Part shown: positions 918-33,142 of the stretch, in pieces
Numbering within the stretch: the first letter of the stretch is position 1
Layout of the letters: each line of letters opens with the position of its first letter
Assembly: GCA_049472175.1 (NCBI GenBank)
Contig: JBLIRF010000001.1
Span: 1-48,127 of the forward strand
Source of the DNA: Thermoplasmatota archaeon
Lineage (GTDB): Archaea > Thermoplasmatota > Penumbrarchaeia > Penumbrarchaeales > Penumbrarchaeaceae
Direction: 5' to 3'
Length of the DNA: 48,127 nucleotides
Program-made: the position numbers and the translations under genes
Notes under the pieces: generated by a model
The model's database searches: none
Seen by the model: the letters and a program-made list of their open reading frames with translations, nothing else
What the model was told of the DNA's origin: nothing

Positions 918-3900
918 ATGAAATGGTCCAAGCTGGCAGTTCTTCTTGTTATTGCAACCATGGTGATGCCGTTGTTCATCTACGATCTGAAGGATGTTGA
1001 AGGGGGCAAACCCATTTTCAGATCGAACATCCTGGCTGTATGGGATAATACCAATTACAATCAGAGACCCATCGATATGGAAGTGGACCATAACGGCAGG
1101 ATATATATCACGTACACCACCGACCAGTTCTATTTTATGGACACATATCTCGTCTACTCGGATGACGACGGTATCACCTGGTCCTCATCACATCGGATCG
1201 ATGATGTGCTTCGGGACGGGAACTCGAGCAATGATAGATCGTCTCAGCTGGCGCCCAGGATGGCCATAGCTTCCAACAACACCGTATATGTCGTCTGGGC
1301 GGATGAGAGGGACAAGACCTACATCGAGCCACAGACAAGACATATCCGTATAGCCTGGTCGAAGGATGGGGAGAATTTCTCGAGAAGCGTCAGGATAGAC
1401 CCCATCAAGGAGGAGCAGACGTGGGAGGCCGGTCAGCCCGATATAGCCATCAACCAGGACGGAAGGATATTCGTGGCATGGCTGGACCAGAGGTTCGCCG
1501 GTGCCTATGACAATGTTTGGACTTCGTACTCCGATGATGGCGGAGCGACCTGGTCAGATATGCAGATGATCAACGACGACGGACTTTACTACAGGAACCA
1601 TGAGTATGCAAGATGTGTCATGCAGGGAGATGACGTATATGTCACCTGGCAGGACAAGAGGGGAGAGGACAACCAGTACAGACCTTATATGGATGCCTCG
1701 CATGATGGTGGAGAAACCTTCGGGGTCGATATTGCAGTCTCTGACGACATGGAGCAGTACAATTCCAGACAGTGGCCTTCCCCTGCCCTTGACGAGGCTG
1801 GAAACCTCTATGTGACCTGGAGGGACAAGAGGACCGCAAATGACGAAATATGGTTCGCCAGGAGCGAGGACAAAGGAGTAAGCTTTTCAACGAACATCAG
1901 ACTGGCGGTGGCCCCGGAAGGCTCTGAGGATATGTACCCTTACACTGCGGCCACAGGCATTGGAGGTGTAGGTGTGGTGTTCCAGCGATCCGTTGAATCG
2001 GGGGATATTACGGATGATGGTGAGATCTTCTACATAAACTCATCAGACGGTGGAAGGACCTGGGATGTATTGATGAGGGTCGATGACACTGACCGCTACA
2101 GCCCGGATACGACCATGCAGGAAAAACCCCTCCTTGTGTATGATAACACGGGGCGGGCAATATCAACCTGGGCGGATCACCGATACTTCTACAGTAAAAG
2201 CAGAGAGGTGTATTTCTCAGCTCACAGCGGCCCGGTCGATGGTCCGAACCACAGACCGATCATATACGACGAGGATTTCTGGTCAACTTTCCAGTTCAAC
2301 CCTAAGGTCGGCTCCTCGACCACGAACATTACCTTCTCCTGCAATTATTCTGACCATGACAATGATGTTCCCATTGAAGGCTACCCGCGGATCCACATTT
2401 ATGGGGATGAGGCGGGAAATGAACCGGTTTTCAATGAACCGAAGGTCATGAACAAGGTCTTTCCGAATGATATCGATTACATGGATGGTGCATACTACTT
2501 ATCCAGCTTCCAGATACCTGTCGAAGGTCAGACCTACTTCAGGATAGAGGTCATCGAGGAAAGGGATCCCGAACCCCTGTTCTCATCTCTCCTCGAAGGT
2601 CCCCTCATCGACGCCACACCGCCCAAGTTGACCGTTATCTCCCCGGCAAACGGGTCATGGCACAATACCGAGACCATATTCTGCAAGGTGAGGGTCGAGG
2701 ATTTCGAGGGGGGGAACGTCCAGGAAGGTTCAATAAAGGTTAGGAAATCCATAAACGATCTGGAGAACCTGGAGAAAGGGGTCGCCCTTCCCAACAAACA
2801 GATGATAGACAACAACACCTACGAGGCCTGGGGCAACGTCAGGCTGGACAGCGGGACGGACAACTACGTGGTTTTCGAGGCAAAGGACAAGGTTGGGAAC
2901 GGACCCGGTTTGTCTGTACCGGTAAATATCTGGATCGATCCCGATCCGCCCTACTATACGGGGGTCGGTCCAACCGAAATCCAGCTATTCGAGACCGTTA
3001 ACTGCACCATCCAGTGGCTTGACCATTTCCCCGGATCGAAAGCACAGACCTCCGGCCTCAATATCTCATCGATAGAATTTGCATACAGGACCACAAGCGG
3101 TCCCCTCACAGAATGGGCACCTCCCGAGGGTATGATAGACCTTGGTAACGAGACCTATCATTGCTGGGTTAACCTTCAATTCCCCGACGAAGGAGTATAC
3201 AGTTTCATCAAATGGAGGGCAAAGGACAACCTCGACAACGTCAAGGAGACAGGAGAGTTCCGGATAAAGGTGGATGTTCCAGACAATTACAGACCGATCT
3301 TCTTAGGAAAGGGATACCCGGACGGGGTCGTTTCTCCAAGGCCGCATCTATTCTGGGATGCAGCCTCGGACATCGAAGGAGACACTCTCTACTACCGGGT
3401 GATGCTGCTCAAATATCCCGGAGAGCTCCAGCTCACCCACTGGATAGACGTCGGTGAGAGGACCTTTTACGACATTCCAGACGATGATCCCCTGGATCCT
3501 GGCTATTATATCCTTCGGGTGAACGTATCGGACAAGATGGGGGGCTACGATTACGACACGATGGACCATTTATTCAGGATAATGGACAAAGGAACACCTC
3601 CACCGGAAAAGGTCCCCCGTTTCGGACCATTCTACTCAAGCGACTCGAATATTGAGATCAACTGGAGCCAGTCCCCGAGCCATACCGACATGGACATCCA
3701 TTACATGATAAGGATGGGAAGCAAGGCATATCATGGGGACATACTGGAATGGACGGACATAGGCCGTATACCAAGATATTCCCTCGGGGACCTGAACCTC
3801 GATATCGGGATATATTCCATCCAGATAATGGTGACCTCCAATTACAACTACAGCAGGGTCACACTGGGGACCTTGAAGATCAACGACTACAATCTGTCCC

Positions 3901-4766
3901 ATTGGAGCCCGCTGGAATCCCTTTCATACAGAGGATACGGACGCGGTTTCTCGGTCGATGTGGTCAATTACGCGACCTTCAGCGACAATGTGACGATAAC
4001 ATTGGAGGGTTATCTTGCTGAAGAAGGCGCTGCCTACCTGGACATCAGCGGTTCGAGGACAGGACATTTGAAGCTCTCATCTCAGAAGATCCTGTCAGAT
4101 CCGGAACCGATACATATCGAGGTGACCGTCTTCCCGGATGAGGATATCGAGAAAAGGGATTACAAGGTCAGGTTGAGGATTCAATCCGAGGATGGCAGGA
4201 CCGTCACCTACACAGACTACGTTACAGTGGAGGTCAAGGACAAGCCCCGGGATGGATTCGGTCAGGAAATTTCTGACAACCTTTACGACTTCCTGACCGA
4301 CACTCTACCTTTCCTCAAACCAGTTCGGCAGGACCTTCTGGTCCCGTTGTTCCTTGTCTTCGTCGCGATCCTGGTGACCCTGATATCGGGCATCGGTATA
4401 CTGATCTACAGGAAGAAGTTCAGAAAGGTTGTCAAGGATGACCCATATTCACATCAGAGGAAGCTTTACAGGGACCTCTACGGGGTGAATCCAAGTGATG
4501 AGCAGCTTAAACGGATGGAACAGGCCCAGACCCAGCCATCAGAGGACGATTTCTTCAGCGAGATCCCGGATATAGGGCCTGACAAGGACGATCGGACCGG
4601 GGTCCGGCCTCAGTCCGTCCGTGACGGCAATGCACAAAAGGAGGTTGGGACAGAAGATGAGGCATCCCGAGAATTGAAAGAAAAGGAGGAACCGGCGGGA
4701 GAAGAGGACCTTGAAGGGGTGGAGGAAAAGGAAGAGGGGGATTACATGGACCCGGATTCCCTCTGA
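918..4766 (+). CDS. Large cell-surface protein: signal peptide, six-Asp-box (BNR) beta-propeller, Ig/FN3-like modules, C-terminal TM anchor and acidic cytoplasmic tail
   Basis: The N-terminus MKWSKLAVLLVIATMVMPLFIY is hydrophobic. There are six SxDxGxTW/F Asp-boxes: SDDDGITW, SKDGENF, SDDGGATW, SHDGGETF, SEDKGVSF and SSDGGRTW (about 1150-2120). Ig-like modules downstream end in a D.xGN motif (EAKDKVGN, RAKDNLDN). The TM segment LLVPLFLVFVAILVTLISGIGILIY lies at 4336-4410. It is followed by RKKFRK and a 117-aa E/D-rich tail. Confidence 0.7.
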   Translation: MKWSKLAVLLVIATMVMPLFIYDLKDVEGGKPIFRSNILAVWDNTNYNQRPIDMEVDHNGRIYITYTTDQFYFMDTYLVYSDDDGITWSSSHRIDDVLRDGNSSNDRSSQLAPRMAIASNNTVYVVWADERDKTYIEPQTRHIRIAWSKDGENFSRSVRIDPIKEEQTWEAGQPDIAINQDGRIFVAWLDQRFAGAYDNVWTSYSDDGGATWSDMQMINDDGLYYRNHEYARCVMQGDDVYVTWQDKRGEDNQYRPYMDASHDGGETFGVDIAVSDDMEQYNSRQWPSPALDEAGNLYVTWRDKRTANDEIWFARSEDKGVSFSTNIRLAVAPEGSEDMYPYTAATGIGGVGVVFQRSVESGDITDDGEIFYINSSDGGRTWDVLMRVDDTDRYSPDTTMQEKPLLVYDNTGRAISTWADHRYFYSKSREVYFSAHSGPVDGPNHRPIIYDEDFWSTFQFNPKVGSSTTNITFSCNYSDHDNDVPIEGYPRIHIYGDEAGNEPVFNEPKVMNKVFPNDIDYMDGAYYLSSFQIPVEGQTYFRIEVIEERDPEPLFSSLLEGPLIDATPPKLTVISPANGSWHNTETIFCKVRVEDFEGGNVQEGSIKVRKSINDLENLEKGVALPNKQMIDNNTYEAWGNVRLDSGTDNYVVFEAKDKVGNGPGLSVPVNIWIDPDPPYYTGVGPTEIQLFETVNCTIQWLDHFPGSKAQTSGLNISSIEFAYRTTSGPLTEWAPPEGMIDLGNETYHCWVNLQFPDEGVYSFIKWRAKDNLDNVKETGEFRIKVDVPDNYRPIFLGKGYPDGVVSPRPHLFWDAASDIEGDTLYYRVMLLKYPGELQLTHWIDVGERTFYDIPDDDPLDPGYYILRVNVSDKMGGYDYDTMDHLFRIMDKGTPPPEKVPRFGPFYSSDSNIEINWSQSPSHTDMDIHYMIRMGSKAYHGDILEWTDIGRIPRYSLGDLNLDIGIYSIQIMVTSNYNYSRVTLGTLKINDYNLSHWSPLESLSYRGYGRGFSVDVVNYATFSDNVTITLEGYLAEEGAAYLDISGSRTGHLKLSSQKILSDPEPIHIEVTVFPDEDIEKRDYKVRLRIQSEDGRTVTYTDYVTVEVKDKPRDGFGQEISDNLYDFLTDTLPFLKPVRQDLLVPLFLVFVAILVTLISGIGILIYRKKFRKVVKDDPYSHQRKLYRDLYGVNPSDEQLKRMEQAQTQPSEDDFFSEIPDIGPDKDDRTGVRPQSVRDGNAQKEVGTEDEASRELKEKEEPAGEEDLEGVEEKEEGDYMDPDSL

Positions 4767-6894: not shown

Positions 6895-9800
6895 TCATAT
6901 TGGCTGGGACTTCTGCCTGTAAGCGATGATCCCCAATGCCACCACGATCACCATTATCGCGAATATCACTATCCTCCAGTTCACTTCAAGAGTGCTCTCG
7001 GGTGTTTTTCCGATAACGACATTGTACCAGATGCCTGCATTGTCGAAATCATCGGTCTCCTTGATGTTGTTGTATGGATCGACAAGGACCTCGAGCGTAT
7101 GGAACTCATTCTCGGTTATATTGTAGTCCGTGACATTGAAACGAACCTTCGCGGACCCTGTCCCACCCTGGGGTATGTAGGGGACGACCCCCTCGGCTAC
7201 CACTTCTCCGTCGACCATGAGGGATACGTTGACGGAATGGGCATCACGATGAAGGGACTGAACGGTAATATTTGCCTCGACCGTACGATTCAGAACAGCA
7301 TCGTTAAGTCTGCGGTTGGTGATCTTCAGGAAGCCGGGAGGAAGCACGAGATTTGGCTTGTTTACCTCCATGGTGACCTCTTTCTTCACCACGTCACCCC
7401 AGCGGTTCTTCCCGGTGAAGGTCAGGGTCAGCCTTTCGTTGTAGAGGGAACTTTCGGACCCTTCCGGTGTCCAGACCGTTATCGCATACTTCCTGACACC
7501 CTTTGGAAGGAGTGTGGCATTCTCACCTGCTGCAGGGAACTCCGAGGACCCTTCCCATTCGACCTTCCAGCCCTCGATTTCCTCGGGTCTTGGGTCCATC
7601 TGTATGTTGACCACATCCTCCCCCGTCCCGAGATTGTCCACAGTTATGTTGAATACCCTCATCTCGTCGTAATCAACACCCATCACCTCGGGTATATCGA
7701 AGAGAAGATCGAACCTGTAGCTTGAAGGTGTCGATATCTGGACCTGGAATGTGTTCTTGGTATTCTGGTCCGATTCTCCCTGGAATATAAGTGAATTCGA
7801 GAAATCAGGTTCCGATGGAGAGGTGATATTTACCCATCTGGTGACCCTTTCGCCTATTTCGAGAGGTATATCAGTACCCTCGGGGAACTCCACTTTCCAG
7901 GAATCCGGTATCTCGCTGGTGACCACACTCACCGAGAAAGGCTCGTTCCCGACGTTCTCGATGTAATATTCGAGCCTGACGGTCTCCTTCGCGGCCATCT
8001 GGATCTCGTGCTGCAGGTCGTTCACAAGATCTATATCGAACGTATATTCTTTGATCTTCTCGAACTCGAATGCAAGGTCCTGCGCTGTCGTTGAGGAGTT
8101 GAGGGTGAACCTCTCTGAGATACTGTACGACATATCCATTCCGTATTCCTCGATGATGAACCGGGAGGACGCGAAATACTCGTAATATGGCATGTCCACT
8201 ACATAGGTCCCCTTCCGGTATTGAATGGTTATCTCGCCTCCTCCATCGACCTTCGAAAAGACGAGCTCGTCACCTTCCGGAGGTTCGTATATCAGCTCTC
8301 CATCCGTATTCCTGTATACGACCGTCCCCGATACCCTGGCTGCCGGAACCGCGGACCATTCAACATCGGTGAGGTCATCGCCCATGTCGATGTTGAGCTC
8401 GGCAAGGTACCCGAACATCGGACGACCGTCGCTATACCGCATACCGCTAACTGTATAGATACCGGGAGCAAGGTGTATCTCGAATGAACCGTCCCCCTCC
8501 GTGGTTATCCTGATCTCATCATCATTGAGGTCCTCGAATACAAGGTAGAGCCCGGAAGCAGGGGACTCCTCGGCATCGTATATGCCATCAAGATCATGGT
8601 CCACGTAGATGACTCCCTTCACGACGACATCCTCGGGAACCAGGGGTATGTCCCATAGAGAGAGACCATCCTCTGGAAGGTCAACAATTGCGACATCCTC
8701 CCTGGGGGAGGACTTGAAACCCTCCATGTCAACGGATATCGACAATCTGGTATAGGGTACCATCAACGAGTAATCACCGTTGGAGTCCGAATATGTCCAA
8801 ACAGGGTCCCCTCCATCCATGGGTGTGAAAGTGACATTAACACCTTCCTTTCTCTCCTCCAGCTGTATTGTCCTATCGTCATTTACATCGTAATATACGG
8901 CTCCGGTGACCTCCACGTTCTTGGAGATTTCCAGTAGAAGACCCACGACCGCACCGGATATCTCCACCGTTGATGTGTGGTAGTATTCTACTTGTATATC
9001 CTCATCGAAGGAAGGATCGAGGGTCAGGAAATTGTACTCCGCTGTGTAGACACCAGTGAGCAATATTGTGGAGAAATCCCCGTCCTCCTGGACCTCAGCA
9101 CCGACCCATAGTCCGTCCTTTACGAAGAACACCTCCGAATCGCCCATTCCGTCGAAATCCGGGCTTAAACTCCCTTCCACTGGGAAAGCCTGTACCATTT
9201 CGAATGTTCCGGGTTCAGAGCCGTAGTCCAGCGAAATGACATCCCAGTACATGTAATGGGTTCCCGGCCTCTCCTGGTGCGCTTCAAGTATGTAATCCCC
9301 TGCCGGCAGCTCCACTTGGAACTTCCCGTTGAAATCGGTCTCCCCTGATCCTATCGTCACCTTTATACCTTGTATGGAATTGAAGTTGACCGATATCTCC
9401 GCAGGATACTTCACAATGGAATTCTCAACGAGGAACATTGTCCCTTCATACGCTATGATATGTTCCACCTGACAGTCGAGATAGAAGATCCCCGTTGATG
9501 GCTCTACCCCCAGATACTCCGAGGTGTAGAGAGTATGATGAACTCCATCCTCGTCGAACTCCTCGGTAATTTCCAGGAAATACTCCCCGGGAGCAAGGGA
9601 AGCTGTCAGGATCCCGTCATTGTCCGTCCTCGCCCGGATGGGTCCTCCGACCATGTAGGTCTCGGCTGGATTTATCAAAAATTCCCTGTTGGACACCGAT
9701 TCATTATCGATCCCGTACCTTCCGTAAAAAGGTACAGTGGCATTTATCTGGATCTGTCTCTCACGGGCTTCGAGAGGGGCGTCCGTACCGTTCAATCCGA

Positions 9801-12800
9801 AGTTGAGGACCTCGGCCGATCTTTCCACGATCACTTCTCTTGTGAACGGGTAGAAACCGTCTATTATCACCTTCATCAGGTATTCGCCCGGTGGAAGAAA
9901 TGCCTCGAACTCTCCGTCCATAAATGTGGTGCAGGAAATGGAGCCGTTCGAGTATTCGAACTGGATCTCGATGTTTTCCAGACCGAACTCGATGGGGAGA
10001 GGAACAGGGTCGTCGATGGTGGATTCCAGGTCCTCCGATGTCGTAAAGATATTGTTCCCGTCCTTGTCCCAGTATACTCTCCCGGTGACGGATGCTGTCT
10101 GGGATGCAAACAGGTTCATTTCAATATTGTCGAGACCTCCCGTACTGGGAAGGTCCTGCATATGGAAGTATGTAACATTACCAGGATAGGAAGTGTTCTC
10201 CACCTTGACCCGATAATCCGCCCTTGGCAGAAATGCCTCATAATTTCCACGATCGTTGGTAGAGATCCATACAATGGCTCCATCATCCTCCCTGATGAAC
10301 GAGAACATCGTATTGTTGATCGGAATACCGGCCTGCTTGGTGATGGTCCCATTCACCCTGAACGCCCTTCCTAGGATCAGTGTCCGGGAAACCCTATCCT
10401 TCCATCCGATCTCGACCGAGGACACAGCCGCCCAGTAGCTGTCACGGTCCAGGGAATATACATGGACAGCATAGGTCCCCTCAGGGACCTCCATGTACAG
10501 GTACCCCTCCTCATCCAGGAACGCAGACCATCTCCGGGTAATATTGTTGGTATCGGTCAGATGCACGATGCCGCCGGTAACTGGAGCTAAGGCGTTTTCA
10601 ATGTTTTCCGTGAAACTGTATTCCGCCGGATACTTGACCTTCAATTCCAGGTCGCCTCTTGGCAGCAGAGTGATATTGAAGCTGAGGTTGTCTCCCTGGT
10701 CGATCTCGAACTTCACTGGATCGTGCACGAAAGCGGTGTTGATGACATTCAAAGTGTATATTCCCGGGAAGAGTCTGTCAACCGAGAAATTGCCTGCCAG
10801 GTCGGTCCTGGCCTCGACCGACCCCCCTTCAGAGTCAGTTATGAGGACTTTCTGGTCCTGGGCGGGGAACCCGCTTACGACCTTCACCCTGCCACCGACA
10901 ATTGTATTGTCCATTCGAATGTCCTTGGTGGATTCTCCCTGCAGGTCAACCTTGTAATCGGAAATCAGCGTCTGTTCCTTGCCTCCGAAGGTGTAGATGA
11001 TGTCATATCTTCCGGGAACGAGGTCTTCGAACCTGTAGCTTCCATCGACCTCGAGCCCATACGGGCCGTAGACCTTCCCGTTCGAACCTTTCAGTTCGAA
11101 GGTGATCTCACCCTTCTCAACGAGTTCATCCTCCCCCTCGGTGAAGGCAGAGTCGCCATCCAGGTCCCAGTATATCTTACCGGAAAGTGTCTTCCCGGAT
11201 ATGACCAGGTCCCTGGTCATCTTTCCGTTATCCACCCTCCGCATCGCCAGATCGTCCGATATTTCCAGGATGGTGCTGTTGAGCAGTGATGTGGGCTGTC
11301 CGGTCGACTGGTCCATCTGGAACTGGTAAAGCATATCGTACTGGTTCTCAAGGTCTCCCTCGGTTACGACAAGGTCAGCTTCTCCAGGGGGTACTATCAA
11401 ACTGTACTCGCCGTTCGGTCCGGTGAAAACGTTCCCGTGCGGTATGCCGAAATCATCAAGGACCGTCACCCTCACCCCCGGCACGCCGACCCCTCTTTCC
11501 GTTCTTACCCGGCCTTCGACAATGGCCCCGTCATAATACATCAGATAGAATACACCCTGACCCAGGCCGGATTTGATATCGCCGCCCTCACTGCGGTACT
11601 TGGTCATGGCGACCTTGGATTCCATGGGTTTGTAATCGTCCGGGAAGGTCGAGTTGCCCTCATCCTTTTCCGAATAGTAATATGTTCTGTAGACGAGCTT
11701 CCAGTGGGTCATGTTCCATCCCTGCATCGGGGGAAGGTTCTGAAGGGTGCCCGACACACCCGGGACCGACTTGCCGTCCTGGGCTTCATTCACATCACTG
11801 GGGGAGAAACCGATGTAGGTTTTGTAGAAGAGAGAGTTATAGAAAAGATCAGTGTAGAACATCTCGTAATTCTTGATCCTGAACTTGTAACCGAGCCTCT
11901 CGGATTCCTCCTTTGCTTTTTCCATTGTGATCGGATTGTCGGGATAATCGGTCCACTGGGGGTCCTCGTTGGATCCCCTTGTATTTTCCTGGGCATACAC
12001 TTTGTACTCGAGGAAGTCCTCGGTGTTCCTGTCGGCAAGCGTTATCGGGGCGTAGAAGATACCCGTGTTGCTGCTCGAGAACGGGAACAGACGGTAGTCC
12101 ACTGCGAAGTATCTGAGAGACCTGCCGGTCGTTTCGCGGACATCATGATACAGGTCCACGATGCCTTCCTCGCCCAGGTGCATCATGGCCCCGCGGGCAG
12201 CTGCATATCTTGCATTCGGCCAGGTGAGCCCTTCGAACTTCCCGTACTTGTCGGGATTGTTCTCGACCACCTTGATGTAGTCTTCCGGCCTTCTGTATAT
12301 CCTCTGGATCTCGTAGGCGCTCCTGGTCGAGTTCTTATCGCCACCCAGATGCTTGATAAGAGCATCCCAGACGTCATCGGAGAATTTCTGGTTGTTCTTG
12401 ATCCAATCCCCCTCGAGAAGCCGAGCAGTCATCAGGGCTACAGCCTCGGATTCGTTCTGGGAAGCGATCATCGAGCCGGTGAACTGGTAACCGTTCTGGA
12501 AGTTATCCGCTGCTGTGGGGTGTTTTCCCAGAAGGAGTTCATCAAAACCATAGTCCCACCAGCTCATGAAGGCGGGTCTGTCCTCCGGAGGAACTGTTTT
12601 GTTATTCACGAGGATGTCCTGCCGTGCCAGCCATTCATATGAATCCATCCAGTATTCGCTGTGGAGTGAAGAACCGAAGGACCCAAGATATTCGAGGTTG
12701 GGATCGAAATCGCTCTTGGTCTCGGTTGGTACAGCCGCATCGAAGGCAAAGAAGAGGCTTGGGAATATCACTAGGAAACCGACGCCCAGTGCGGTCAGGA

Positions 12801-14553
12801 TCTTCCTGAACTTGAAGGTCTCACGTTTCTTCTTATACTTCATGTATGCGAAATACCCTATGGACACAATGAAAATAGGTAACAGCATGAAGGTCATAAG
12901 GTTCCTTGAGAGATAGGTGTCCCATCCTTCCGATAGTACGAGTATCAGAATAATGAAGACCAGTGCGGCGACGATGGAATATACTATCGAAAGACCCTCG
13001 GCCTTGAAGTAGTCCACGATCTTCACCAAAACCCATCCCGCCAGAAGGGCGAAGGCAGGTGTGGCGTTGAAATTGAACCTGACAGCTGAGAGGGACATGT
13101 ATATGGCAACGGCGGTCCAGACAACCACAACAATGTAGTCCTTCCTCATCCTCTTGGGTATCTTGATGGCGGCCATTACCACTCCGATCAGACCCAGGAA
13201 GAAGGTTGCTGGGCCGTAAGTGAACACCACCCGTGAGATATCGGGTGCCTGAGCCTCCGCAATGGTCGAATAGAGTTTGGACTTTGCGAAGTATCCCCCG
13301 CCGGTGAACAGAAGATCTGCTGTCTCGGGAAATCCCCACTGAAGAATGAAGTAGGAAACGAAAAGCAGCAGAAGGAGTGTGGGAATGACCAGTAACCAGG
13401 GTATGTCCCTTGTCGGTACGATGAATATCCCTAGTACCGTCATGGCCAGAAGTATGTAGAATCCCTGGCTCCAGATCGTTATGGAGAATGTGAAATAGTA
13501 GGGCAGGGACACCAGTACGACGGTAATCATTGCGATGAACACGACCATGAACGTGCCCAGAGCGTCCTCGTTCCTGAAACGATGTATCAATAGCTGGACC
13601 ATGTAGTATATCAGCAATATTGCAAGAACGTATGCAAAACCCTGCCATGTCAATGCTATGGCCGCTATCGACAGACCTGTAAGGAATGCATACAGCAATG
13701 CTTCCCTGTTATGGATCGCGAAGGCTTTAAAACCCAGAAGTACCGCATCGGGTCTTCTCCAATCGGCAATGAAATTCTCATCCTTTTGGACAGAGAAAGC
13801 CCTGGTCATGAAATATATAGAGACAACTAGGAAAAAGACGATCAGAGAATCGTGGTCGGTGAATCCCAGGGTGGACCTTTCTATATGCGACGCTGTTATT
13901 GCCAGGAGGAAGGCGGCAACGATCCCAGCCTTTCTGCCGAATATCTCCTTTCCAAGCATGTACATCGGGAAGATCGTCAGAGCCCCCCAGAATGTGGGTG
14001 CGAATTCGAAGACCCACCAGGTTGCATTATCGACATTGAAGCCGAAGAGGGGAGAAAGGGCGAAACCTGCCAGTGCTATCGTCCAGTCGAATATCGGAGG
14101 CCTTGGGTTGCCTCCGGAAATGGGATAGTTCAGAAGCGGGTCGATCTTTATGTGATGATAGTCGCTCTGGATGAAGTCAATGACCCTCTTGTGATATGAA
14201 GGGTCATTTCCCACGATATTTGGGGGCCAGGTGTTGAACGAGATCTGATAATAGAAGTATTCCCTGATAAGAAATGCGAAAACGAATATGCCAAGCAGTA
14301 AGAAGATGGTATTCCTGTTGTTCTCGTACCATTCCCTGAGAGGGCTTTTTTCGGGCTTCTCCTGGAACCTTGTGGACTTCTTCGGAGCTCCTTCCTGAGC
14401 CTTGCCCTGGGACCCCTTTTCCACCTTCTTCTCCGGCACCGCGGCCTCCTCTTTGACGTTCTCCGATACGGCCTTCTTCTTTTCGGGCTTGGGAGAGACC
14501 CTTGATTCCTTCTTCTTTCCCTTCGCCTTTGAGGACCTTGCCCTGCGAGCCAT
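6895..14553 (-). CDS. aglB: Archaeal oligosaccharyltransferase AglB (STT3 family) fused to a very long multi-domain extracellular extension with a C-terminal TM anchor (2552 aa)
   Basis: The ORF is uninterrupted. It starts with a K/E-rich N-terminal tail of about 80 aa, followed by a polytopic TM region. The first loop carries GNDPSYHKR, the EL5-type motif is STIAEAQ (TIxE), and WWDYG is encoded at 12547-12561 (residues 665-669). From about residue 1010 there are many G-x-V/I...D..G.Y.L..PG.Y modules. CARDB-like modules lie near the end. The terminal TM segment is IVIFAIMVIVVALGIIAY. Confidence 0.85.
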   Translation of the reverse strand: MARRARSSKAKGKKKESRVSPKPEKKKAVSENVKEEAAVPEKKVEKGSQGKAQEGAPKKSTRFQEKPEKSPLREWYENNRNTIFLLLGIFVFAFLIREYFYYQISFNTWPPNIVGNDPSYHKRVIDFIQSDYHHIKIDPLLNYPISGGNPRPPIFDWTIALAGFALSPLFGFNVDNATWWVFEFAPTFWGALTIFPMYMLGKEIFGRKAGIVAAFLLAITASHIERSTLGFTDHDSLIVFFLVVSIYFMTRAFSVQKDENFIADWRRPDAVLLGFKAFAIHNREALLYAFLTGLSIAAIALTWQGFAYVLAILLIYYMVQLLIHRFRNEDALGTFMVVFIAMITVVLVSLPYYFTFSITIWSQGFYILLAMTVLGIFIVPTRDIPWLLVIPTLLLLLFVSYFILQWGFPETADLLFTGGGYFAKSKLYSTIAEAQAPDISRVVFTYGPATFFLGLIGVVMAAIKIPKRMRKDYIVVVVWTAVAIYMSLSAVRFNFNATPAFALLAGWVLVKIVDYFKAEGLSIVYSIVAALVFIILILVLSEGWDTYLSRNLMTFMLLPIFIVSIGYFAYMKYKKKRETFKFRKILTALGVGFLVIFPSLFFAFDAAVPTETKSDFDPNLEYLGSFGSSLHSEYWMDSYEWLARQDILVNNKTVPPEDRPAFMSWWDYGFDELLLGKHPTAADNFQNGYQFTGSMIASQNESEAVALMTARLLEGDWIKNNQKFSDDVWDALIKHLGGDKNSTRSAYEIQRIYRRPEDYIKVVENNPDKYGKFEGLTWPNARYAAARGAMMHLGEEGIVDLYHDVRETTGRSLRYFAVDYRLFPFSSSNTGIFYAPITLADRNTEDFLEYKVYAQENTRGSNEDPQWTDYPDNPITMEKAKEESERLGYKFRIKNYEMFYTDLFYNSLFYKTYIGFSPSDVNEAQDGKSVPGVSGTLQNLPPMQGWNMTHWKLVYRTYYYSEKDEGNSTFPDDYKPMESKVAMTKYRSEGGDIKSGLGQGVFYLMYYDGAIVEGRVRTERGVGVPGVRVTVLDDFGIPHGNVFTGPNGEYSLIVPPGEADLVVTEGDLENQYDMLYQFQMDQSTGQPTSLLNSTILEISDDLAMRRVDNGKMTRDLVISGKTLSGKIYWDLDGDSAFTEGEDELVEKGEITFELKGSNGKVYGPYGLEVDGSYRFEDLVPGRYDIIYTFGGKEQTLISDYKVDLQGESTKDIRMDNTIVGGRVKVVSGFPAQDQKVLITDSEGGSVEARTDLAGNFSVDRLFPGIYTLNVINTAFVHDPVKFEIDQGDNLSFNITLLPRGDLELKVKYPAEYSFTENIENALAPVTGGIVHLTDTNNITRRWSAFLDEEGYLYMEVPEGTYAVHVYSLDRDSYWAAVSSVEIGWKDRVSRTLILGRAFRVNGTITKQAGIPINNTMFSFIREDDGAIVWISTNDRGNYEAFLPRADYRVKVENTSYPGNVTYFHMQDLPSTGGLDNIEMNLFASQTASVTGRVYWDKDGNNIFTTSEDLESTIDDPVPLPIEFGLENIEIQFEYSNGSISCTTFMDGEFEAFLPPGEYLMKVIIDGFYPFTREVIVERSAEVLNFGLNGTDAPLEARERQIQINATVPFYGRYGIDNESVSNREFLINPAETYMVGGPIRARTDNDGILTASLAPGEYFLEITEEFDEDGVHHTLYTSEYLGVEPSTGIFYLDCQVEHIIAYEGTMFLVENSIVKYPAEISVNFNSIQGIKVTIGSGETDFNGKFQVELPAGDYILEAHQERPGTHYMYWDVISLDYGSEPGTFEMVQAFPVEGSLSPDFDGMGDSEVFFVKDGLWVGAEVQEDGDFSTILLTGVYTAEYNFLTLDPSFDEDIQVEYYHTSTVEISGAVVGLLLEISKNVEVTGAVYYDVNDDRTIQLEERKEGVNVTFTPMDGGDPVWTYSDSNGDYSLMVPYTRLSISVDMEGFKSSPREDVAIVDLPEDGLSLWDIPLVPEDVVVKGVIYVDHDLDGIYDAEESPASGLYLVFEDLNDDEIRITTEGDGSFEIHLAPGIYTVSGMRYSDGRPMFGYLAELNIDMGDDLTDVEWSAVPAARVSGTVVYRNTDGELIYEPPEGDELVFSKVDGGGEITIQYRKGTYVVDMPYYEYFASSRFIIEEYGMDMSYSISERFTLNSSTTAQDLAFEFEKIKEYTFDIDLVNDLQHEIQMAAKETVRLEYYIENVGNEPFSVSVVTSEIPDSWKVEFPEGTDIPLEIGERVTRWVNITSPSEPDFSNSLIFQGESDQNTKNTFQVQISTPSSYRFDLLFDIPEVMGVDYDEMRVFNITVDNLGTGEDVVNIQMDPRPEEIEGWKVEWEGSSEFPAAGENATLLPKGVRKYAITVWTPEGSESSLYNERLTLTFTGKNRWGDVVKKEVTMEVNKPNLVLPPGFLKITNRRLNDAVLNRTVEANITVQSLHRDAHSVNVSLMVDGEVVAEGVVPYIPQGGTGSAKVRFNVTDYNITENEFHTLEVLVDPYNNIKETDDFDNAGIWYNVVIGKTPESTLEVNWRIVIFAIMVIVVALGIIAYRQKSQPI
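6990..11520 (-). repeat. Protein-level tandem array inside aglB: at least 8 CarboxypepD_reg / Cna-B (SdrD-B)-like beta-sandwich modules, then about 3 CARDB-like modules
   Basis: Examples of the beta-sandwich modules are GRVRTERGVGVPGVRVTVLDDFGIPHGNVFTGPNGEYSLIVPPGEADL, GKIYWDLDGDSAFTEGEDELVEKGEITFEL..DGSYRFEDLVPGRYDI, GRVKVVSGFPAQDQKVLITDSEGGSVEARTDLAGNFSVDRLFPGIYTL, GAVYYDVNDD..SDSNGDYSLMVPY and GVIYVDHDLDGIYDAEE..GDGSFEIHLAPGIYTV. A CARDB-like example is ANITVQSLHRDAHSVNVSLMVDGEVV...VLVDPYNNIKETDDFDN. Confidence 0.6.
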
Positions 14554-19193: not shown

Positions 19194-22100
19194 TCACTCA
19201 TTCCAATCCTCAATATCGTCCATTTCTTCGAGCTCTTCAAGGTCATCGATGTCTTCCCATTCAGGTACCTCTTCATCTTCCTGATCCGCCCCTTCATTAT
19301 CCGCCTCTCCCCAGATAGGGATCTGATCCTCATCCTCGTCCCAGACAGGGACCTCGTGGGAAAGCTCCTTCCCATCAGTGTGGGGTATATCATGAACTTC
19401 AGGTACCCGGACATCTTCTTTTTCCAAAACTGTCGTGGTTTCCCTGCCGGTCTTATCCACAAACGGACGTTCTGATACTTCCGTTGGGCTTTCCTCTGCC
19501 CTGATGATCTCAATATCTTCCGATGAGGTTCTCATTTCCGGGACCATGTCCTCCCCTATATTGATCACCCGCTTCTGCTTCCTCCTCTCAGCTGCAGGTC
19601 TGATATAACCAGAACCCTCCTCCGTGGTTTCTATCTTTCCGCCTGTGGCCGGAGGGAGGTCCATCAGCTGGAGTCCTTGAGGAGGAAGTGTATGATGTAT
19701 GGGAGCCGCTGGGATAGATAAACCCGGCCTTTTTGGCCTTTTCACTTCTTCATCCTCATGCTTTCTCGACCTTTTACGTGATATTATTATTGCGATTATC
19801 ATGATTGCCAGCAGCAAGCCCACCAATCCCATTGCCAGGATACCGAAGAAAGGGATCGAGCTTCCGTCCCCGTCATCCGGCCCACCGCCTCCACTCCCGA
19901 TAAAGAAAGACCAGTTACCCCCATCGGAATTCCCTGCCTTGTCTATGATCTTCAGTGTGATGGTGTGTTCGCCTTGTTCGAGACCCTCGAACTTATAGAA
20001 GTTCCCGGTGGTGACCATCCCGAAACCCTCTCCATCGATATCTATCATGGTAGAGGCTATACCGGACACCGTGTCCTTGGCGGACCAGTAGATCATTGCC
20101 TGGTTTCCGGATACATATGACCTCTCCAGGTCAATGCTAAGTACAGGCGGGGTCAGATCGATGACCAACATCTCGGAACCCGATATGAACCACTCCCAAC
20201 CGACCCGATCCAGTGCTCTCAATGTAAAGGTATATTCCCCTTCTCCCAGCGTGAGGTTGATGTACGATGCTTCAGGATCAAGGTAAACTGCCGTGCCGTC
20301 GAATTCCAGAGACAGGTTTGCGATGCCGTTTCGGTCGAATGCGGCCCAGCTGATGTTGAACCAGTTCTCGCAAACGAACCCGGCCGGTTCGTTCACCCAT
20401 TCGAGATCGGGCAGGTGCATATCAACAATGACGCCTACGGTCCTTGTTACCAGATTACCGGCCATGTCCGAGGCAATGAGGGATATGTAATGGTCTCCCT
20501 CGATACCCAGCGCTGCATTGTAGGAAGTCCTTCCGAGCACATCCAAGAATATGCGGTTATCTATGACAAGGGTGAGGTTGCTCAGCAGATGGTCATCCAA
20601 AGCTTTCCAGGTTATCATGACCGATGAATCCTTCAGGATCTCACCGTCTGCCGGAGAGATTATCTCCACTACCGGAGGTTCTATGTCGATGACGAAGTGC
20701 AACTCCTTTTCCATTGAATTGCCCGCAGGATCGATGGCCTTTATCCTCAGCTTGTGGTTGCCTGGAGATAAGGTTAGGTCCATAGATGTGAAGTTCCCCA
20801 TGTCAAGTGCGGGTCCGTCATCAATATACAGCTCAAAACTCCTCACCTCCTGACCGAACTGGTCCCGTGATGTCCATATAACCTTGAGATCCGTTCTGTT
20901 GATCACTGAGTTCTCCTCGGGTGTCACGAAGTCCACCAGTGGAGATCTCGTATCCCTTATCACGGTGATGGTACTCTCGATGTAATTTCCGTCATCGTCC
21001 TGCAATCTTATCGAGACCGGATATTCCCCGTCCTCCGGGAGTGGGATCTCCAGCTCTCTTTCACCCCTGATGTCCTCCAGAGCTCCTTTTCCTATCTTTA
21101 AAAAAGAACGACTCCAGGGGAACTGACCGGAATATTCCCATTTCAATATGAACGATCCGTTCCGGGTCGCTGTACCATCCGGAGGCTCCACGATCTCTAT
21201 CCCGGTATCTCCACCAATAAGGATCGACAGGCTGACGTTCGTAACCGACCCTGCAAGGTCGAAAGCCCTTATGTTCATGGTGTGAGGGCCGTCCGGAAGG
21301 AGGTCGGAGAATTGCGAAATGCCGGTCCGGTCTATATATGGCCCTTCATCCAGACACGCATCCACGCGGTGAATTCCGTAATTATCCTCCACGGTGATAT
21401 TGAAGGTCACGTAGTTGTTCGAGATCACCGAACCGGGTTGCGGGGACCTGATGAATATCTGCGGAGGGGTGACATCTATGGTAAATGTGGAGGATCTAGA
21501 TAGTTCCAGACCATCGTCATCCCTAACGGTCAGCCTGACCGTATGGGGCCCTTCGCCAAGAGACCGGATGGCAGCCTTCGTACTGGGGGGAAGATAGGTG
21601 AGGAGACCGTCCACATCCAATGAAAGGTTCTCGGGAACGAAATACGGCATTAAGGTCCAGGTTATCCGATACATACTGGTCGAGTTGTATTCCCCCTCGA
21701 TCGGATGTTCGATTATGATTACATCTTCGGTTTCCGGGATGAAAACGGCGACACTGTCTTCCCCGTAAAGGCCAGCAAGATCGTAGGCCTTGACCCTGAT
21801 ATCGTGGTTACCTTTTTCAAGAAAGAGGCTTTTTTGCATACCTTCATCGACATTCACGAAAGGACCGCCGTCAAGTGAGATCATTGTCCTGGATATGCCT
21901 GACCCGATATCGGTCGCTGTCCAGGTCGCTCTGAGATATGAACGGGTGATCGTACCGGACGATGGTTCCGTGATGGTAACGACCGGTCCGGCAGTATCGA
22001 AATAGGGGTTCGTGGAGGGTCTTGTATCCAACCCGTTGCTTGGTATGGTGTAATTGATATCCACGATACCGTTGTTGTCCAGGTCAGGCTGGCGGTGGTT

Positions 22101-23210
22101 GGCCCAGAAATTACCGACGCCGCCCACGGTCCATTTGTTCTCGTAATAAGGGGAGTAATAGTTTTGGGTAGCTTGCGAACCTGATGTGGAATTATCGGTA
22201 CCTGCATTATGATAGAATATGTTCCTCCAGATGCGGTTCGTCATTCCGTTGTTCAATGCTATCGCATAGGATGTGCAGTTGCCGAAATAATTGTAAAGGA
22301 TGTGGGTATAGGTCAATCTTGTCTGGTAAGAGCCTTCCGTGTTCAATCCCACGTCGCAGGATTCGAAGGTATTGTTATCGATCACCTGGGTTGTTGTGAT
22401 CGATTGCCAAGCGAGAGAATTGAAGTAGATGCCGTTGGTCCCATGAAAATAGTTCTGAGAGATCACCAACCGATATGTTGACACTATTCTAAGAGCATCC
22501 CCATTTGAGTTGTCAAAGTGGTTATTCACTATCATGGAGCCCGTATTGCCGTCCTGAACGGTGACCTGTGAATCATGGAAGGTGGAATTTGCGATCACAC
22601 CATTACTAAAGAACCTCAGGTCCTCGTATGCTACTCCAGAGCATGTATTGTTTATAAAACGGTGTCCCGTACCCTGGCTGAACCCGATCCTTCCCGCTCC
22701 GGTCAGAACGTTCTCGGAGAATGATGAATTCTGGATGGTGACCGAACTGCAGGATAGGAAGTCGAATGAGTTCGTAGAGTATCTGATACTTGAGAAATTG
22801 CTGTTTACTATCATGATATCGTTCAGGACATAACCGTAAACAACCCTTGACCTGTCTATGGTCGTGACGTTCTCTATCACTACGTTGTCAGCATTATAAA
22901 GGAACAATGCCCACGAATCCGAGCTGGAGAAGGTTATATTGCGCAGTATGAGGTGTTTGGAAGTATTCTTTATCTGGATATTATGAGGTCCAAGATCAAG
23001 ATCTGAAACTATGTAAGGACGTGAACTTGAACCAGTACCGCTCTTAACATAAGGTGATGTGAAGGAATTATTGCCCTCGAACACTATGTTCTCATCCACA
23101 TCATCAAGCCCGTCCGAGACGGGCAGGATAACGCATAGCATCATCAACACTATCGCTATCGATGCTGCCGTTTCCCAGCATTTTATCACAGGAATACTTC
23201 CTGGCCTCAC
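19194..23210 (-). CDS. Large cell-surface protein: signal peptide, right-handed parallel beta-helix (PbH1/NosD-like), about 8 tandem Ig-like modules, TM anchor and an acidic Trp-containing cytoplasmic tail
   Basis: Beta-helix rungs are visible as NITFSS, IENVTT, IVNSNFS, IQNSSFSEN, FINNTCSG, IANSTFHDS, IVNNHFDNS, ISQNYFHG and IDNNTFESC. The Ig-like modules follow the pattern W.a.D..sGI....l.lDG......L.eG.H.i.vkA.D.AGN. The TM segment IPFFGILAMGLVGLLLAIMIIAIII lies at about 19785-19865. The tail is about 190 aa. The start is GTG at 23210. Confidence 0.7.
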   Translation of the reverse strand: MRPGSIPVIKCWETAASIAIVLMMLCVILPVSDGLDDVDENIVFEGNNSFTSPYVKSGTGSSSRPYIVSDLDLGPHNIQIKNTSKHLILRNITFSSSDSWALFLYNADNVVIENVTTIDRSRVVYGYVLNDIMIVNSNFSSIRYSTNSFDFLSCSSVTIQNSSFSENVLTGAGRIGFSQGTGHRFINNTCSGVAYEDLRFFSNGVIANSTFHDSQVTVQDGNTGSMIVNNHFDNSNGDALRIVSTYRLVISQNYFHGTNGIYFNSLAWQSITTTQVIDNNTFESCDVGLNTEGSYQTRLTYTHILYNYFGNCTSYAIALNNGMTNRIWRNIFYHNAGTDNSTSGSQATQNYYSPYYENKWTVGGVGNFWANHRQPDLDNNGIVDINYTIPSNGLDTRPSTNPYFDTAGPVVTITEPSSGTITRSYLRATWTATDIGSGISRTMISLDGGPFVNVDEGMQKSLFLEKGNHDIRVKAYDLAGLYGEDSVAVFIPETEDVIIIEHPIEGEYNSTSMYRITWTLMPYFVPENLSLDVDGLLTYLPPSTKAAIRSLGEGPHTVRLTVRDDDGLELSRSSTFTIDVTPPQIFIRSPQPGSVISNNYVTFNITVEDNYGIHRVDACLDEGPYIDRTGISQFSDLLPDGPHTMNIRAFDLAGSVTNVSLSILIGGDTGIEIVEPPDGTATRNGSFILKWEYSGQFPWSRSFLKIGKGALEDIRGERELEIPLPEDGEYPVSIRLQDDDGNYIESTITVIRDTRSPLVDFVTPEENSVINRTDLKVIWTSRDQFGQEVRSFELYIDDGPALDMGNFTSMDLTLSPGNHKLRIKAIDPAGNSMEKELHFVIDIEPPVVEIISPADGEILKDSSVMITWKALDDHLLSNLTLVIDNRIFLDVLGRTSYNAALGIEGDHYISLIASDMAGNLVTRTVGVIVDMHLPDLEWVNEPAGFVCENWFNISWAAFDRNGIANLSLEFDGTAVYLDPEASYINLTLGEGEYTFTLRALDRVGWEWFISGSEMLVIDLTPPVLSIDLERSYVSGNQAMIYWSAKDTVSGIASTMIDIDGEGFGMVTTGNFYKFEGLEQGEHTITLKIIDKAGNSDGGNWSFFIGSGGGGPDDGDGSSIPFFGILAMGLVGLLLAIMIIAIIISRKRSRKHEDEEVKRPKRPGLSIPAAPIHHTLPPQGLQLMDLPPATGGKIETTEEGSGYIRPAAERRKQKRVINIGEDMVPEMRTSSEDIEIIRAEESPTEVSERPFVDKTGRETTTVLEKEDVRVPEVHDIPHTDGKELSHEVPVWDEDEDQIPIWGEADNEGADQEDEEVPEWEDIDDLEELEEMDDIEDWNE
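19910..22010 (-). repeat. Protein-level tandem array of about 8 Ig-like modules of roughly 90 aa inside the beta-helix surface protein
   Basis: Repeated blocks include ATWTATDIGSGISRTMISLDGGPF..EKGNHDIRVKAYDLAG, VIWTSRDQFGQEVRSFELYIDDGP..SPGNHKLRIKAIDPAGN, ITWKALDDHLLSNLTLVIDN..EGDHYISLIASDMAGN and IYWSAKDTVSGIASTMIDIDGEG..EQGEHTITLKIIDKAGN. Confidence 0.6.
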
Positions 23211-29252: not shown

Positions 29253-29316
29253 AGCGGAGTGGTCCATAAAAAAGGTTAATATCCTGTACCTAATAAACGG
29301 GTACAGGTGCGCGTCC

Positions 29317-32580: not shown

Positions 32581-32587
32581 CCCTGGT

Positions 32588-33142
32588 TCAGCTTCCTCTC
32601 TCTGCCTTCCATTCATATATCATCCTCTCCTGCTGCGAGGTCTGTATCGAACCGCTCCTCCTGCTTCTTACAAGCGTTATCGCCTCGGAGGGGGATAAGC
32701 CCTTATCGACAAGAAACAGGGCTATCATGGTCCCGGTCCTTCCGATCCCCGCTGCACAATGGACCATGACAGGCCCATCCTGTGCCGAGACGATCCTTAT
32801 GGCCTCCCTCACCTGGTCCCGGGTCGGTACTGACATGTCCACCACAGGAATATGATAACACATGATCCCAGACCCTTCGGACCACTCCCCGGGCCATGGA
32901 CTCTCAGAGAGATTGATCGAAACCCCTATCCCCTCGAACCTTTTTAGGAATTCAAGATATTCAAGGTCCGGCGGATAGACCGATGCCATCAGTTTCCCTG
33001 GGACTATCCAGTCATATGGCACTAATCCGTACCTTGACCACCCGAGAACCTTTTCCTGTGACATCTTCATTATATCTTCTCCGAATCCCAGAGACCGACA
33101 TGACCCGGCCGTCCGATATGAATTCCAATACCTGGTTCCCAT
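32588..33142 (-). CDS. Dual-specificity / protein-tyrosine phosphatase (CX5R)
   Basis: The active-site loop is VHCAAGIGRTGTMIA. An alternative start at 33070 (MKMSQEK), preceded by GGAG, would give a more typical 160-aa protein. Confidence 0.8.
   Translation of the reverse strand: MGTRYWNSYRTAGSCRSLGFGEDIMKMSQEKVLGWSRYGLVPYDWIVPGKLMASVYPPDLEYLEFLKRFEGIGVSINLSESPWPGEWSEGSGIMCYHIPVVDMSVPTRDQVREAIRIVSAQDGPVMVHCAAGIGRTGTMIALFLVDKGLSPSEAITLVRSRRSGSIQTSQQERMIYEWKAERGS

Follow-up and report, generated by a model that had tools for sequence, protein, structure and literature searches.

A giant AglB oligosaccharyltransferase family of Thermoplasmatota with a beta-sandwich ectodomain and a second membrane anchor

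AglB, the archaeal representative of the STT3 family of oligosaccharyltransferases (OSTs), is viewed as a single-subunit enzyme of ~600-1000 residues with an external domain that ends free. A stretch of 48,127 nucleotides from a Thermoplasmatota archaeon (positions 1 to 48,127 of contig JBLIRF010000001.1, assembly GCA_049472175.1; hereafter the window) encodes a much larger form, a giant AglB of 2552 residues in which the STT3 core continues into 15 beta-sandwich modules and a second membrane anchor. The last module, a CARDB domain, and the transmembrane (TM) helix behind it are homologous to a translationally coupled gene in sister clades, and the second anchor is therefore probably not a mere tether; the sequence relationships suggest a fused accessory subunit. 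With moderate confidence, the protein is read here as a single-chain OST holoenzyme that would combine an AglB core with an accessory subunit built into the chain and a glycosylated rod of fixed length.

An intact gene in a widespread family

The giant aglB gene occupies a single open reading frame (ORF) on the reverse strand, 6895..14553, with 2552 codons and no internal stops (Table 1). An initial annotation of the window, made from the DNA letters and their translated ORFs, had described one uninterrupted four-part frame of this length in which an STT3 core, a long beta-sandwich ectodomain, and a second anchor share a gene, and this description is borne out. The same annotation had offered the alternative that an error in sequencing or assembly had fused two separate genes. 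In assemblies from NCBI, JGI, ENA, and Logan, 41 orthologues are collinear end to end with the window protein at 27-77% identity, and conserved residues run on over every junction in the 42-sequence alignment. Because collinear full-length orthologues occur in independent assemblies, the giant aglB is a real gene and not an assembly artefact; with the uninterrupted architecture recurring in dozens of such assemblies, an erroneous join has a negligible chance of being the explanation. Broken versions exist in two related genomes. At L020:10001-13228 the gene is split into a 1249-residue ORF and a separate C-terminal ORF, and in locus L055 it is interrupted by runs of X/N; unlike the intact window gene, these are probably assembly or frameshift problems.

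The giant form is encoded by hundreds of Thermoplasmatota species. A search of 5.8 billion proteins returned 275 clusters at E<=1e-10; the 120 best of these are 2100-2800 residues long and end in a hydrophobic helix with a basic tail, except for about 8 truncated entries. A HMMER search with the core only (residues 81-1000) gave 276 representatives at 50% identity with E<=1e-30, most of them longer than 2000 residues. The 187 apparently complete relatives from this search are distributed as follows: 4 below 1900 residues, 23 at 1900-2100, 78 at 2100-2300, 34 at 2300-2500, 24 at 2500-2700, 17 at 2700-2900, and 7 at ~3150. Genomes representing GTDB species contain 304 loci with a relative, and among the best 80 of these the complete genes all encode 2075-2824 residues with a terminal TM helix and basic tail. 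Going by record titles, the loci belong to Thermoplasmatota; DHVE2, Methanomassiliicoccales, and the EX4484-6-type sediment lineage, the last being nearest to the window, are among the groups represented. An Aciduliprofundum sp. entry falls within one 2075-residue cluster.

Length varies by only ~1-2% within a clade. The 20 complete close orthologues of the window protein have 2519-2558 residues with one exception of 2479, and the DHVE2 forms have 2075-2097. Surveyed in this way, forms above 2000 residues are the norm in the lineage and have already received automatic names (STT3 domain-containing, glycosyltransferase family 39, carboxypeptidase regulatory-like domain-containing, or "peptide transporter"), which lowers the novelty that the initial annotation had seen in the fusion.

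Relatives at both extremes of length differ in architecture. Those of ~3150 residues (P0228, P0230, P0241, P0243, P0249) match STT3 from residue ~370-440 onward and so carry a long N-terminal extension; they also end in a TM helix and basic tail. A sister group of ~1100-1290 residues has neither the rod nor the terminal helix and still has D1-type modules, with ~550-630 residues after the WWDYG motif (P0177, P0180, P0181, P0185, P0186, P0190, and locus L081:10001-13573 among them). This group may represent the state before the rod was gained or after it was lost. The gene for P0177 (1190 residues, no C-terminal TM helix) adjoins a GT4 glycosyltransferase gene. A 714-residue neighbour of P0177 was considered as a split-off rod and rejected as unrelated (best BLASTP E 0.96); it has a faint CARDB match and a HEHAH sequence of the HExxH, zinc-protease type, noted by eye.

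The STT3/AglB core

By every sequence criterion tested, the window protein is a member of the STT3/AglB family. The Pfam STT3 model PF02516 matches with E 3e-18 (67 bits against a cut-off of 24.5), residues 105-506 align with AglB-L of A. fulgidus (AfAglB-L; 5gmy/3waj) with E 1e-11, and the NCBIfam model of archaeal STT3, TIGR04154 (archaeo_STT3, archaeosortase A system-associated), matches residues 84-860 with E 5e-66 and 223.6 bits. The first 80 residues precede the membrane domain as a weakly conserved tail (26% mean identity to close orthologues). The initial annotation had called this a K/E-rich cytoplasmic tail, and its composition, 31% K+R against 15% D+E, makes it a basic one.

The catalytic motifs are in place. 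Recomputation puts DPSYH at residues 117-121 (nucleotides 14191-14205), confirms TIAE, and places WWDYG exactly at the 12547-12561 given earlier. In the alignment of 42 sequences, G, N, D, P, Y, and H of GNDPSYH are near-invariant, as are D-H-D of the second motif, where GFTDHD of the window protein aligns with GFNDHH of AfAglB-L. TIAEAQ is likewise near-invariant and SWWDYGF is invariant or nearly so. WWDYG is found in 120 of the 120 listed homologues, and the window holds a single motif of this type. The external globular domain that follows is matched by the AglB C-terminal domains 3vgp and 3vu0 in the PDB. Judged by its sequence, the core most likely acts at the membrane surface to move lipid-linked glycans onto Asn-X-Ser/Thr.

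A candidate for the pocket that reads the Ser/Thr residue of the sequon is the stretch NTGIFYAP, in which TGIFYAP is invariant and the leading N near-invariant over the same 42 sequences and which lies in a helix predicted by AlphaFold2. The AfAglB-L stretch around E613 and K618, which we take to read ETGKYYAM, resembles it by eye, in an alignment that is not rigorous. This likeness, matched by eye rather than by structural superposition, suggests an apparently Ile-type pocket in the window protein as against the Lys-type pocket of AfAglB-L. Pockets for the Ser/Thr at position +2 have been described with the motifs DXXKXXX(M/I), MXXIXXX(I/V/W), or E<>KXXX(M/I/P), the last being the variant consensus to which E613 and K618 of AfAglB-L belong (PMC3703281).

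The membrane domain also differs from that of AfAglB-L in its last part. Three hydrophobic segments lie at 12745-12993 of the window (residues 521-603), between the last helix aligned with AfAglB-L and the external domain, in a region that is an indel hotspot of the family alignment. From the equivalent of AfAglB-L residue 440 to WWDYG there are 159 residues in the window protein and 110 in AfAglB-L. The 110 residues leave room for about one segment, so two extra core TM helices are likely here, by estimate rather than structural alignment; the helix count of the core is itself approximate.

A rod of old beta-sandwich modules

AlphaFold2 models built on the 42-sequence alignment cover residues 621-1700 (predicted local distance difference test, pLDDT, 85.6) and 1601-2552 (pLDDT 89.0). 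They predict the AglB globular domain to about residue 1000, then beta-sandwiches only, and then a helix at residues 2526-2549. Together with profile-profile comparison in hhalign, they resolve the ectodomain into 15 modules of three types, a count read from the predicted strand pattern, with approximate module boundaries. Modules D1-D12 are mutually homologous, mostly at >90% hhalign probability. D13 and D14 form a second type for which hhalign finds no homology to D1-D12 or D15 and Pfam has no match. D15 is the CARDB domain (residues 2421-2506 in the whole-protein Pfam scan, E 1.6e-6). In that scan CarboxypepD_reg matches in six stretches with E 2e-45 and SdrD_B with E 2e-10, and all four families named at the outset for a profile check (PF02516 STT3, CarboxypepD_reg, SdrD_B, and CARDB) are thus matched by the protein. 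The initial annotation had the modules beginning near position 11520, in agreement with a first module that starts at residue ~1001-1012. Its count of at least 8 CarboxypepD_reg/Cna-B-like modules and about 3 CARDB-like modules was right in kind and too low, and of the last three modules a single one is a Pfam CARDB.

Conservation along the chain is U-shaped: both membrane-proximal ends are conserved and the middle is variable. Mean identity to the 20 close orthologues is 71% for the core, 73% for the globular domain, and 74% for D1; it falls to 32% in D4 and D7 and rises again through D13 (55%) and D14 (56%) to D15 (63%), with 59% in the juxtamembrane and TM segment. Residues of D1 that are invariant down to ~30% identity include D1033 and H1039 in DDFGIPH. 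D1 may be integral to the enzyme rather than to the rod.

The position of D1 bears on whether the chain stays in one piece. A precursor cleaved after the AglB globular domain would yield an AglB of normal size and a separate anchored surface protein. The one feature that could favour such processing, and then only indirectly, is a poorly structured insert in the AlphaFold2 model at residues 1066-1120, just after D1. D1 is as conserved as the catalytic domain, however, invariant residues are continuous over the junction, and the relatives of ~1100-1290 residues retain D1-type modules. The rod is also a separate gene in no family member; a query with the last 452 residues, aimed at free-standing rod or anchor genes, gave only 4 short-contig fragments and no independent gene. 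Cleavage is accordingly regarded as very improbable.

Recent repeat expansion can be discarded as the origin of the rod, since the ORF has no DNA tandem repeats apart from a 29-nucleotide chance match. Identity between modules has a median of 13% and a maximum of 29%. By these sequence measures the modules are old and fixed in number.

The ectodomain is rich in N-X-S/T sequons, with 23 observed in the window protein against 9.7 expected (z 4.3). Enrichment at z >2 is found in 42 of 42 family members, with a median z of 5.25. The variable and sequon-rich apex, D3-D12, is probably itself N-glycosylated, to judge from its sequence.

Fold searches with both models found only generic tandem Ig/transthyretin arrays and no functional tip domain. 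The best Foldseek matches (E 1e-14 to 1e-8) are pilins, the B. anthracis protein TIE (BaTIE), SdrD, and the stalks of ice-binding adhesins. No known S-layer family has a Pfam match in the protein. These matches, and the SdrD_B assignments in Pfam, are what would be expected if the ectodomain were an adhesin or a ligand-binding stalk that attaches to cells, polymers, or minerals, in the manner of the Cna-B/SdrD-type stalks of Gram-positive surface proteins. All the modules are of the stalk type, though, with no tip or ligand-binding domain among them, and with both ends bound to the membrane nothing would be displayed distally. Adhesin repeats expand and contract, unlike these ancient modules of fixed number. 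Given the tight lengths within clades and the old, non-homogenised modules, a structural or spacer role fits better, and an adhesin appears improbable. The initial annotation had put forward, as conjectures, that the fusion may couple glycosylation to envelope assembly or act as a ruler.

The second membrane anchor

The terminal helix noted at the outset is present at the sequence described, IVIFAIMVIVVALGIIAY (residues 2528-2545, nucleotides 6919-6972), and is followed by RQKSQPI (residues 2546-2552). Orthologues keep the pattern NWRIVIF...AYRQ+TQPI. The window protein has no PGF-CTERM motif before this helix; its C-terminus reads TLEVNWRIVIFAIMVIVVALGIIAYRQKSQPI, with ...LEVNWRIVIF... leading into the membrane. 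A PGF-type motif (e.g., IPGFEGLILIV...RRR) precedes the last helix in several other members (P0047, P0050, P0051, P0053, P0060, and P0075, and loci L041, L051, and L065). Such endings are likely PGF-CTERM/archaeosortase A signals in those members, and the second anchor may be processed and lipid-linked in the PGF-bearing lineages but not in that of the window.

Both the N-terminal and the C-terminal tail would be cytoplasmic, and the whole stretch from the last core helix to the final one would lie outside. The initial annotation had the enzyme tethered at both ends, and the logic of the topology, a basic N-tail, an external catalytic domain, and a basic C-tail, supports this. With basic cytoplasmic tails at both ends, the chain would therefore leave from and return to the same membrane. 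It would form an arch or hairpin with two membrane feet, D1 on one side and D13-D15 with the TM helix on the other. Scaled from BaTIE and from NOMO1, taken to have 12 domains, the contour length would be roughly 34-70 nm and the arch ~15-30 nm high. NOMO1 is a ~27-nm rod with at least 8 discernible domains that sets intermembrane spacing in the endoplasmic reticulum (ER), and BaTIE measures 19 nm for 4 domains (PMC8327139). A contour of this length is also what would be wanted if the STT3 core and the C-terminal helix sat in two different membranes, as a tether or spacer in double-membraned Thermoplasmatota. Helices of the cytoplasmic membrane typically carry a basic tail like the one behind the last helix, and no sign of an outer membrane in this lineage emerged from the analysis. 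The two-membrane arrangement is left with only a slight chance.

A separate partner gene in sister clades

The neighbours of the giant aglB were clustered across the best 80 loci. In 32 loci of the shorter-form clades (among L035-L080), an ORF of ~255 residues lies directly downstream on the same strand, and in most of the 32 its start overlaps the aglB stop; in locus L053 an ATGA overlap was confirmed. The partner has a signal peptide, one unassigned beta domain, a CARDB domain (Pfam E 1e-8 to 2e-9), a TM helix, and a basic tail, with 3 to 11 sequons per member and, in the DHVE2 type, tails that end in PKWKK. Only loci whose 3' end is complete and whose flank is long enough entered the count. 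Of the 38 genes below 2470 residues there, 29 are accompanied by the partner; the nine without it include five long forms truncated at the 5' end, and in another of the nine a BLAST search recovered the partner. Among the shorter-form loci the figure is 29-30 of about 33. The partner lies directly downstream of a long form in none of 22 loci, and it is absent from the window.

The partner and the long forms are linked by homology at their C-terminal ends. The shorter forms end after D13/D14-type modules, whereas at least 14 long forms, the window protein among them, are matched over their last ~110 residues by the partner hidden Markov model (HMM). In profile-profile comparison, the partner family matches residues 2293-2517 of the window protein with 98.6% probability (E 1e-15) and D15 alone with 97.6% (E 4.7e-12). 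From these sequence comparisons, the CARDB and TM foot of the window protein looks like the in-cis version of a small membrane protein that is co-translated with AglB elsewhere, through either fusion or fission.

Proposed working

In the single-chain holoenzyme favoured here, the STT3 core would carry out the usual AglB reaction, the transfer of a lipid-linked glycan to Asn-X-Ser/Thr at the surface of the membrane, and the CARDB and TM foot would serve as a built-in accessory subunit packing near the core. The glycosylated rod, of fixed length, would organise the space above the enzyme, either by setting the spacing to an outer envelope layer or by controlling substrate access, with spacing, fencing, and the guiding of substrates all conceivable. 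Since both feet are conserved and one of them is a co-translated separate protein elsewhere, the feet would work with the enzyme.

Several points weigh against this proposal. The TIGR04154 score of the window protein falls below the 450-bit curated cut-off for membership. Searched with the partner HMM, the same protein gives a weak match (E 5.6e-4). CARDB is a common domain, so part of the similarity between the partner and D15 could be generic. The partner has two domains and the window protein one extra domain compared with the shorter forms, which makes a simple end-to-end fusion an inexact fit, and the pattern of partner presence and absence goes back to one or a few evolutionary events rather than to many independent ones. 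The shape of the arch and any contact between the C-terminal TM foot and the STT3 core are themselves inferred.

The main competitor is a plainer role in the envelope. The rod could chiefly be an envelope or glycocalyx block or spacer in organisms whose cell walls are weak or missing, joined to AglB simply so that the two are co-expressed and the rod is glycosylated in cis, with the C-terminal helix a plain anchor. This is unlikely. The ectodomain is acidic as well as sequon-rich, its length is fixed within clades, and it shares the beads-on-a-string build of BaTIE and of NOMO, whose member NOMO1 sets ER spacing (PMC8327139). M. luminyensis is described as having no prominent cell-wall-like structure (PMC4153887). 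Against a plain anchor, the membrane-proximal modules and the TM helix are more conserved than such a role requires, and the translationally coupled counterpart of the terminal module in sister clades indicates a specific partnership with the enzyme. One copy of the rod per enzyme would also be unlikely to build a wall.

The holoenzyme reading can be extended to much of the phylum, in a proposal that is tentative and has a modest chance of being right. The OST of these Thermoplasmatota would then consist of an STT3 core, a single-pass CARDB/Ig-like subunit (separate in DHVE2, Methanomassiliicoccales, and other clades, and fused in that of the window), and a NOMO-like glycosylated spacer rod of fixed length, which may set the depth between the membrane and an outer envelope layer.

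Genomic neighbourhood and other features of the window

The window is a piece of ordinary archaeal chromosome, with genes for the DNA polymerase D small subunit, topoisomerase VI A and B, HflX, and ornithine/aspartate carbamoyltransferase. Upstream of aglB and co-oriented with it are the DUF1616, DUF58/VWA, and 179-residue membrane protein genes, with 4-nucleotide overlaps among the three. The order Big-protein/YitT/DUF1616/DUF58/orf179/AglB/orf658/BNR-protein is kept only in the close clade (L001-L025), and synteny of the neighbours says little about the function of the giant AglB. No glycosyltransferase or flippase genes were seen beside the window aglB. Two NTP_transferase (sugar-nucleotidyltransferase) genes, at 29227-30186 (+) and 31822-32616 (-), lie 15-18 kb away and could supply activated sugars for glycans.

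Two other large surface proteins are encoded in the window, one BNR/sialidase-like with 1282 residues (918-4766, +) and one with a beta-helix and Big_7/Big_13 domains with 1338 residues (19194-23210, -). Each has an N-terminal signal-like helix, a single TM helix at about residue 1125-1145, and a cytoplasmic tail that is both long and very acidic; their anchoring differs from that of the giant AglB. Farther along, a 1544-residue ORF (41591-46225, -) has no Pfam match and no strong hydrophobic segment. ARAGORN places a 98-nucleotide tRNA-Arg(CCG) inside it on the same strand, at 42243-42340 (-); Rfam has no match anywhere in the window, not even a tRNA at the gathering threshold. One of the two must be wrong, the tRNA call or a portion of the ORF.

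Table 1. Positions of the giant AglB, its parts, and associated genes
Feature	Residues	Position	Strand	Basis or remark
Giant AglB/STT3 oligosaccharyltransferase gene	2552 aa + stop	6895..14553	(-)	Uninterrupted ORF; full-length collinearity with 41 orthologues
Basic low-complexity cytoplasmic N-terminal tail	1-80	14314..14553	(-)	Composition; no hydrophobic segment
Polytopic STT3 membrane domain, ~13-15 TM helices	81-620	12694..14313	(-)	Pfam STT3; AfAglB-L alignment; hydrophobic segments
GNDPSYH, first catalytic acidic motif, external loop 1	115-121	14191..14211	(-)	Aligned to GNDPWYY of AfAglB-L
TDHD, second DxD-type motif	232-235	13849..13860	(-)	Aligned to NDHH of AfAglB-L
TIAE, TIXE motif, external loop 5	430-433	13255..13266	(-)	Sequence
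External globular AglB domain, mixed alpha/beta	621-1000	11554..12693	(-)	AglB_core-like match at residues 650-708; AlphaFold2 pLDDT mostly >85
WWDYG, OST signature motif	665-669	12547..12561	(-)	Sequence; position recomputed
NTGIFYAP, candidate DK/MI-type Ser/Thr-pocket motif (Ile type)	829-836	12046..12069	(-)	Conservation; by-eye likeness
D1-D12, twelve transthyretin-like (CarboxypepD_reg/SdrD_B-type) modules	1001-2151	8101..11553	(-)	Pfam, AlphaFold2, hhalign
D1	1001-1065	11359-11553	(-)	First module, adjoins catalytic domain
D13-D14, second beta-sandwich type	2155-2398	7360..8091	(-)	Homologous to each other, 96% (hhalign)
D15, CARDB domain	2400-2514	7012..7356	(-)	Pfam CARDB E 3.4e-7; PDB 2l0d, 2kut match
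Juxtamembrane NWR, C-terminal TM helix (residues 2526-2545), and tail RQKSQPI	2525-2552	6898..6981	(-)	Hydropathy 2.73; AlphaFold2 helix
Small polytopic membrane protein	179 aa	14651-15190	(-)	ORF
DUF58/VWA protein	473 aa	15187-16608	(-)	Pfam
DUF1616 membrane protein	497 aa	16605-18098	(-)	Pfam
Partner ORF in locus L053		14638-15414	(+)	Overlap with aglB stop

Comparison with known systems

The closest characterised enzyme is AfAglB-L, which has 868 residues and ends free outside the cell (PMC3703281). The window protein resembles it (3WAJ/3WAK, 5GMY, 7E9S) in the STT3 domain, the GNDP, DH-type DxD, TIXE, and WWDYG motifs, and the external globular domain, and differs by ~1550 additional residues, which bring 15 beta-sandwich modules together with a second anchor and a basic N-tail, and probably also two further core helices. 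The enzyme is ordinary, and it is the architecture and the inferred subunit that are new to the open-access literature searched, where no full-text paper on giant AglB fusions or on the AglB partner gene in Thermoplasmatota was found. A family 2.5-3 times larger than the standard AglB is conserved across hundreds of Thermoplasmatota species, and even if the rod should prove a decoration, its recognition corrects the automatic names of these genes. TIGR04154/PGF-CTERM systems offer another point of comparison, the window protein being likewise an archaeal STT3 whose C-terminus has a TM helix and a basic tail, but no PGF.

Gram-positive stalks and pilins (BaTIE 6FWV, PitA, BcpA, SpaA, and the B-domains of SdrD) share the tandem Cna-B/transthyretin-like sandwiches of the rod. 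They are sortase-anchored or polymerised and carry a distal functional domain, whereas the rod of the window protein is predicted to be membrane-embedded at both ends and has no tip domain.

NOMO, a component of the BOS complex (9C7V/9C7U), is similar in overall layout, with a string of transthyretin-like modules, one C-terminal TM helix, and a short cytosolic tail. BaTIE is the top structural relative both of the window rod, by Foldseek, and of NOMO1 (PMC8327139). In the PDB the family profile has its best matches in NOMO2 (E 1e-23, over several modules) and then in AfAglB (1.4e-21); a single-sequence phmmer search of the PDB with the ectodomain gave nothing significant, so that NOMO2 is reached by the family profile only. 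Specific NOMO homology is rejected on the NOMO Pfam models, which stay below threshold (NOMO_5th 21.1 bits and NOMO_3rd 14.3 bits against cut-offs of 27) and whose matches lie under stronger CarboxypepD_reg matches; the NOMO2 profile match is to generic transthyretin-like modules. In terms of sequence, the likeness is one of superfamily and architecture, not of membership. NOMO is also a separate type I protein with a signal peptide that works with NCLN and TMEM147 at the eukaryotic translocon. The rod of the window protein is fused to the OST catalytic subunit, continuing from the AglB domain with rod, TM helix, and tail and without a signal peptide.

An analogy for the proposed subunit lies in eukaryotic OST, whose subunits Wbp1/OST48, Ost1/ribophorin I, and Swp1/ribophorin II have luminal beta-sandwiches and a single C-terminal TM helix beside STT3. 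The CARDB and TM module would resemble these in layout; searches of the window protein brought up none of these eukaryotic subunits by sequence or by fold, and the case that the archaeal module or partner associates with the core comes from gene fusion and operon structure only. Should the partnership prove true, some archaeal OSTs have accessory subunits, and the N-glycosylation machinery would be linked to how the poorly understood envelopes of archaea with weak walls or none are built. Work on the role of beta-sandwich scaffolds beside STT3 would then have a tractable experimental system in cultured relatives and in the split and fused forms. The giant AglB family would in that case provide a prokaryotic precedent for the multi-subunit OSTs and for the luminal beta-sandwich scaffolds at the site of glycosylation and translocation.

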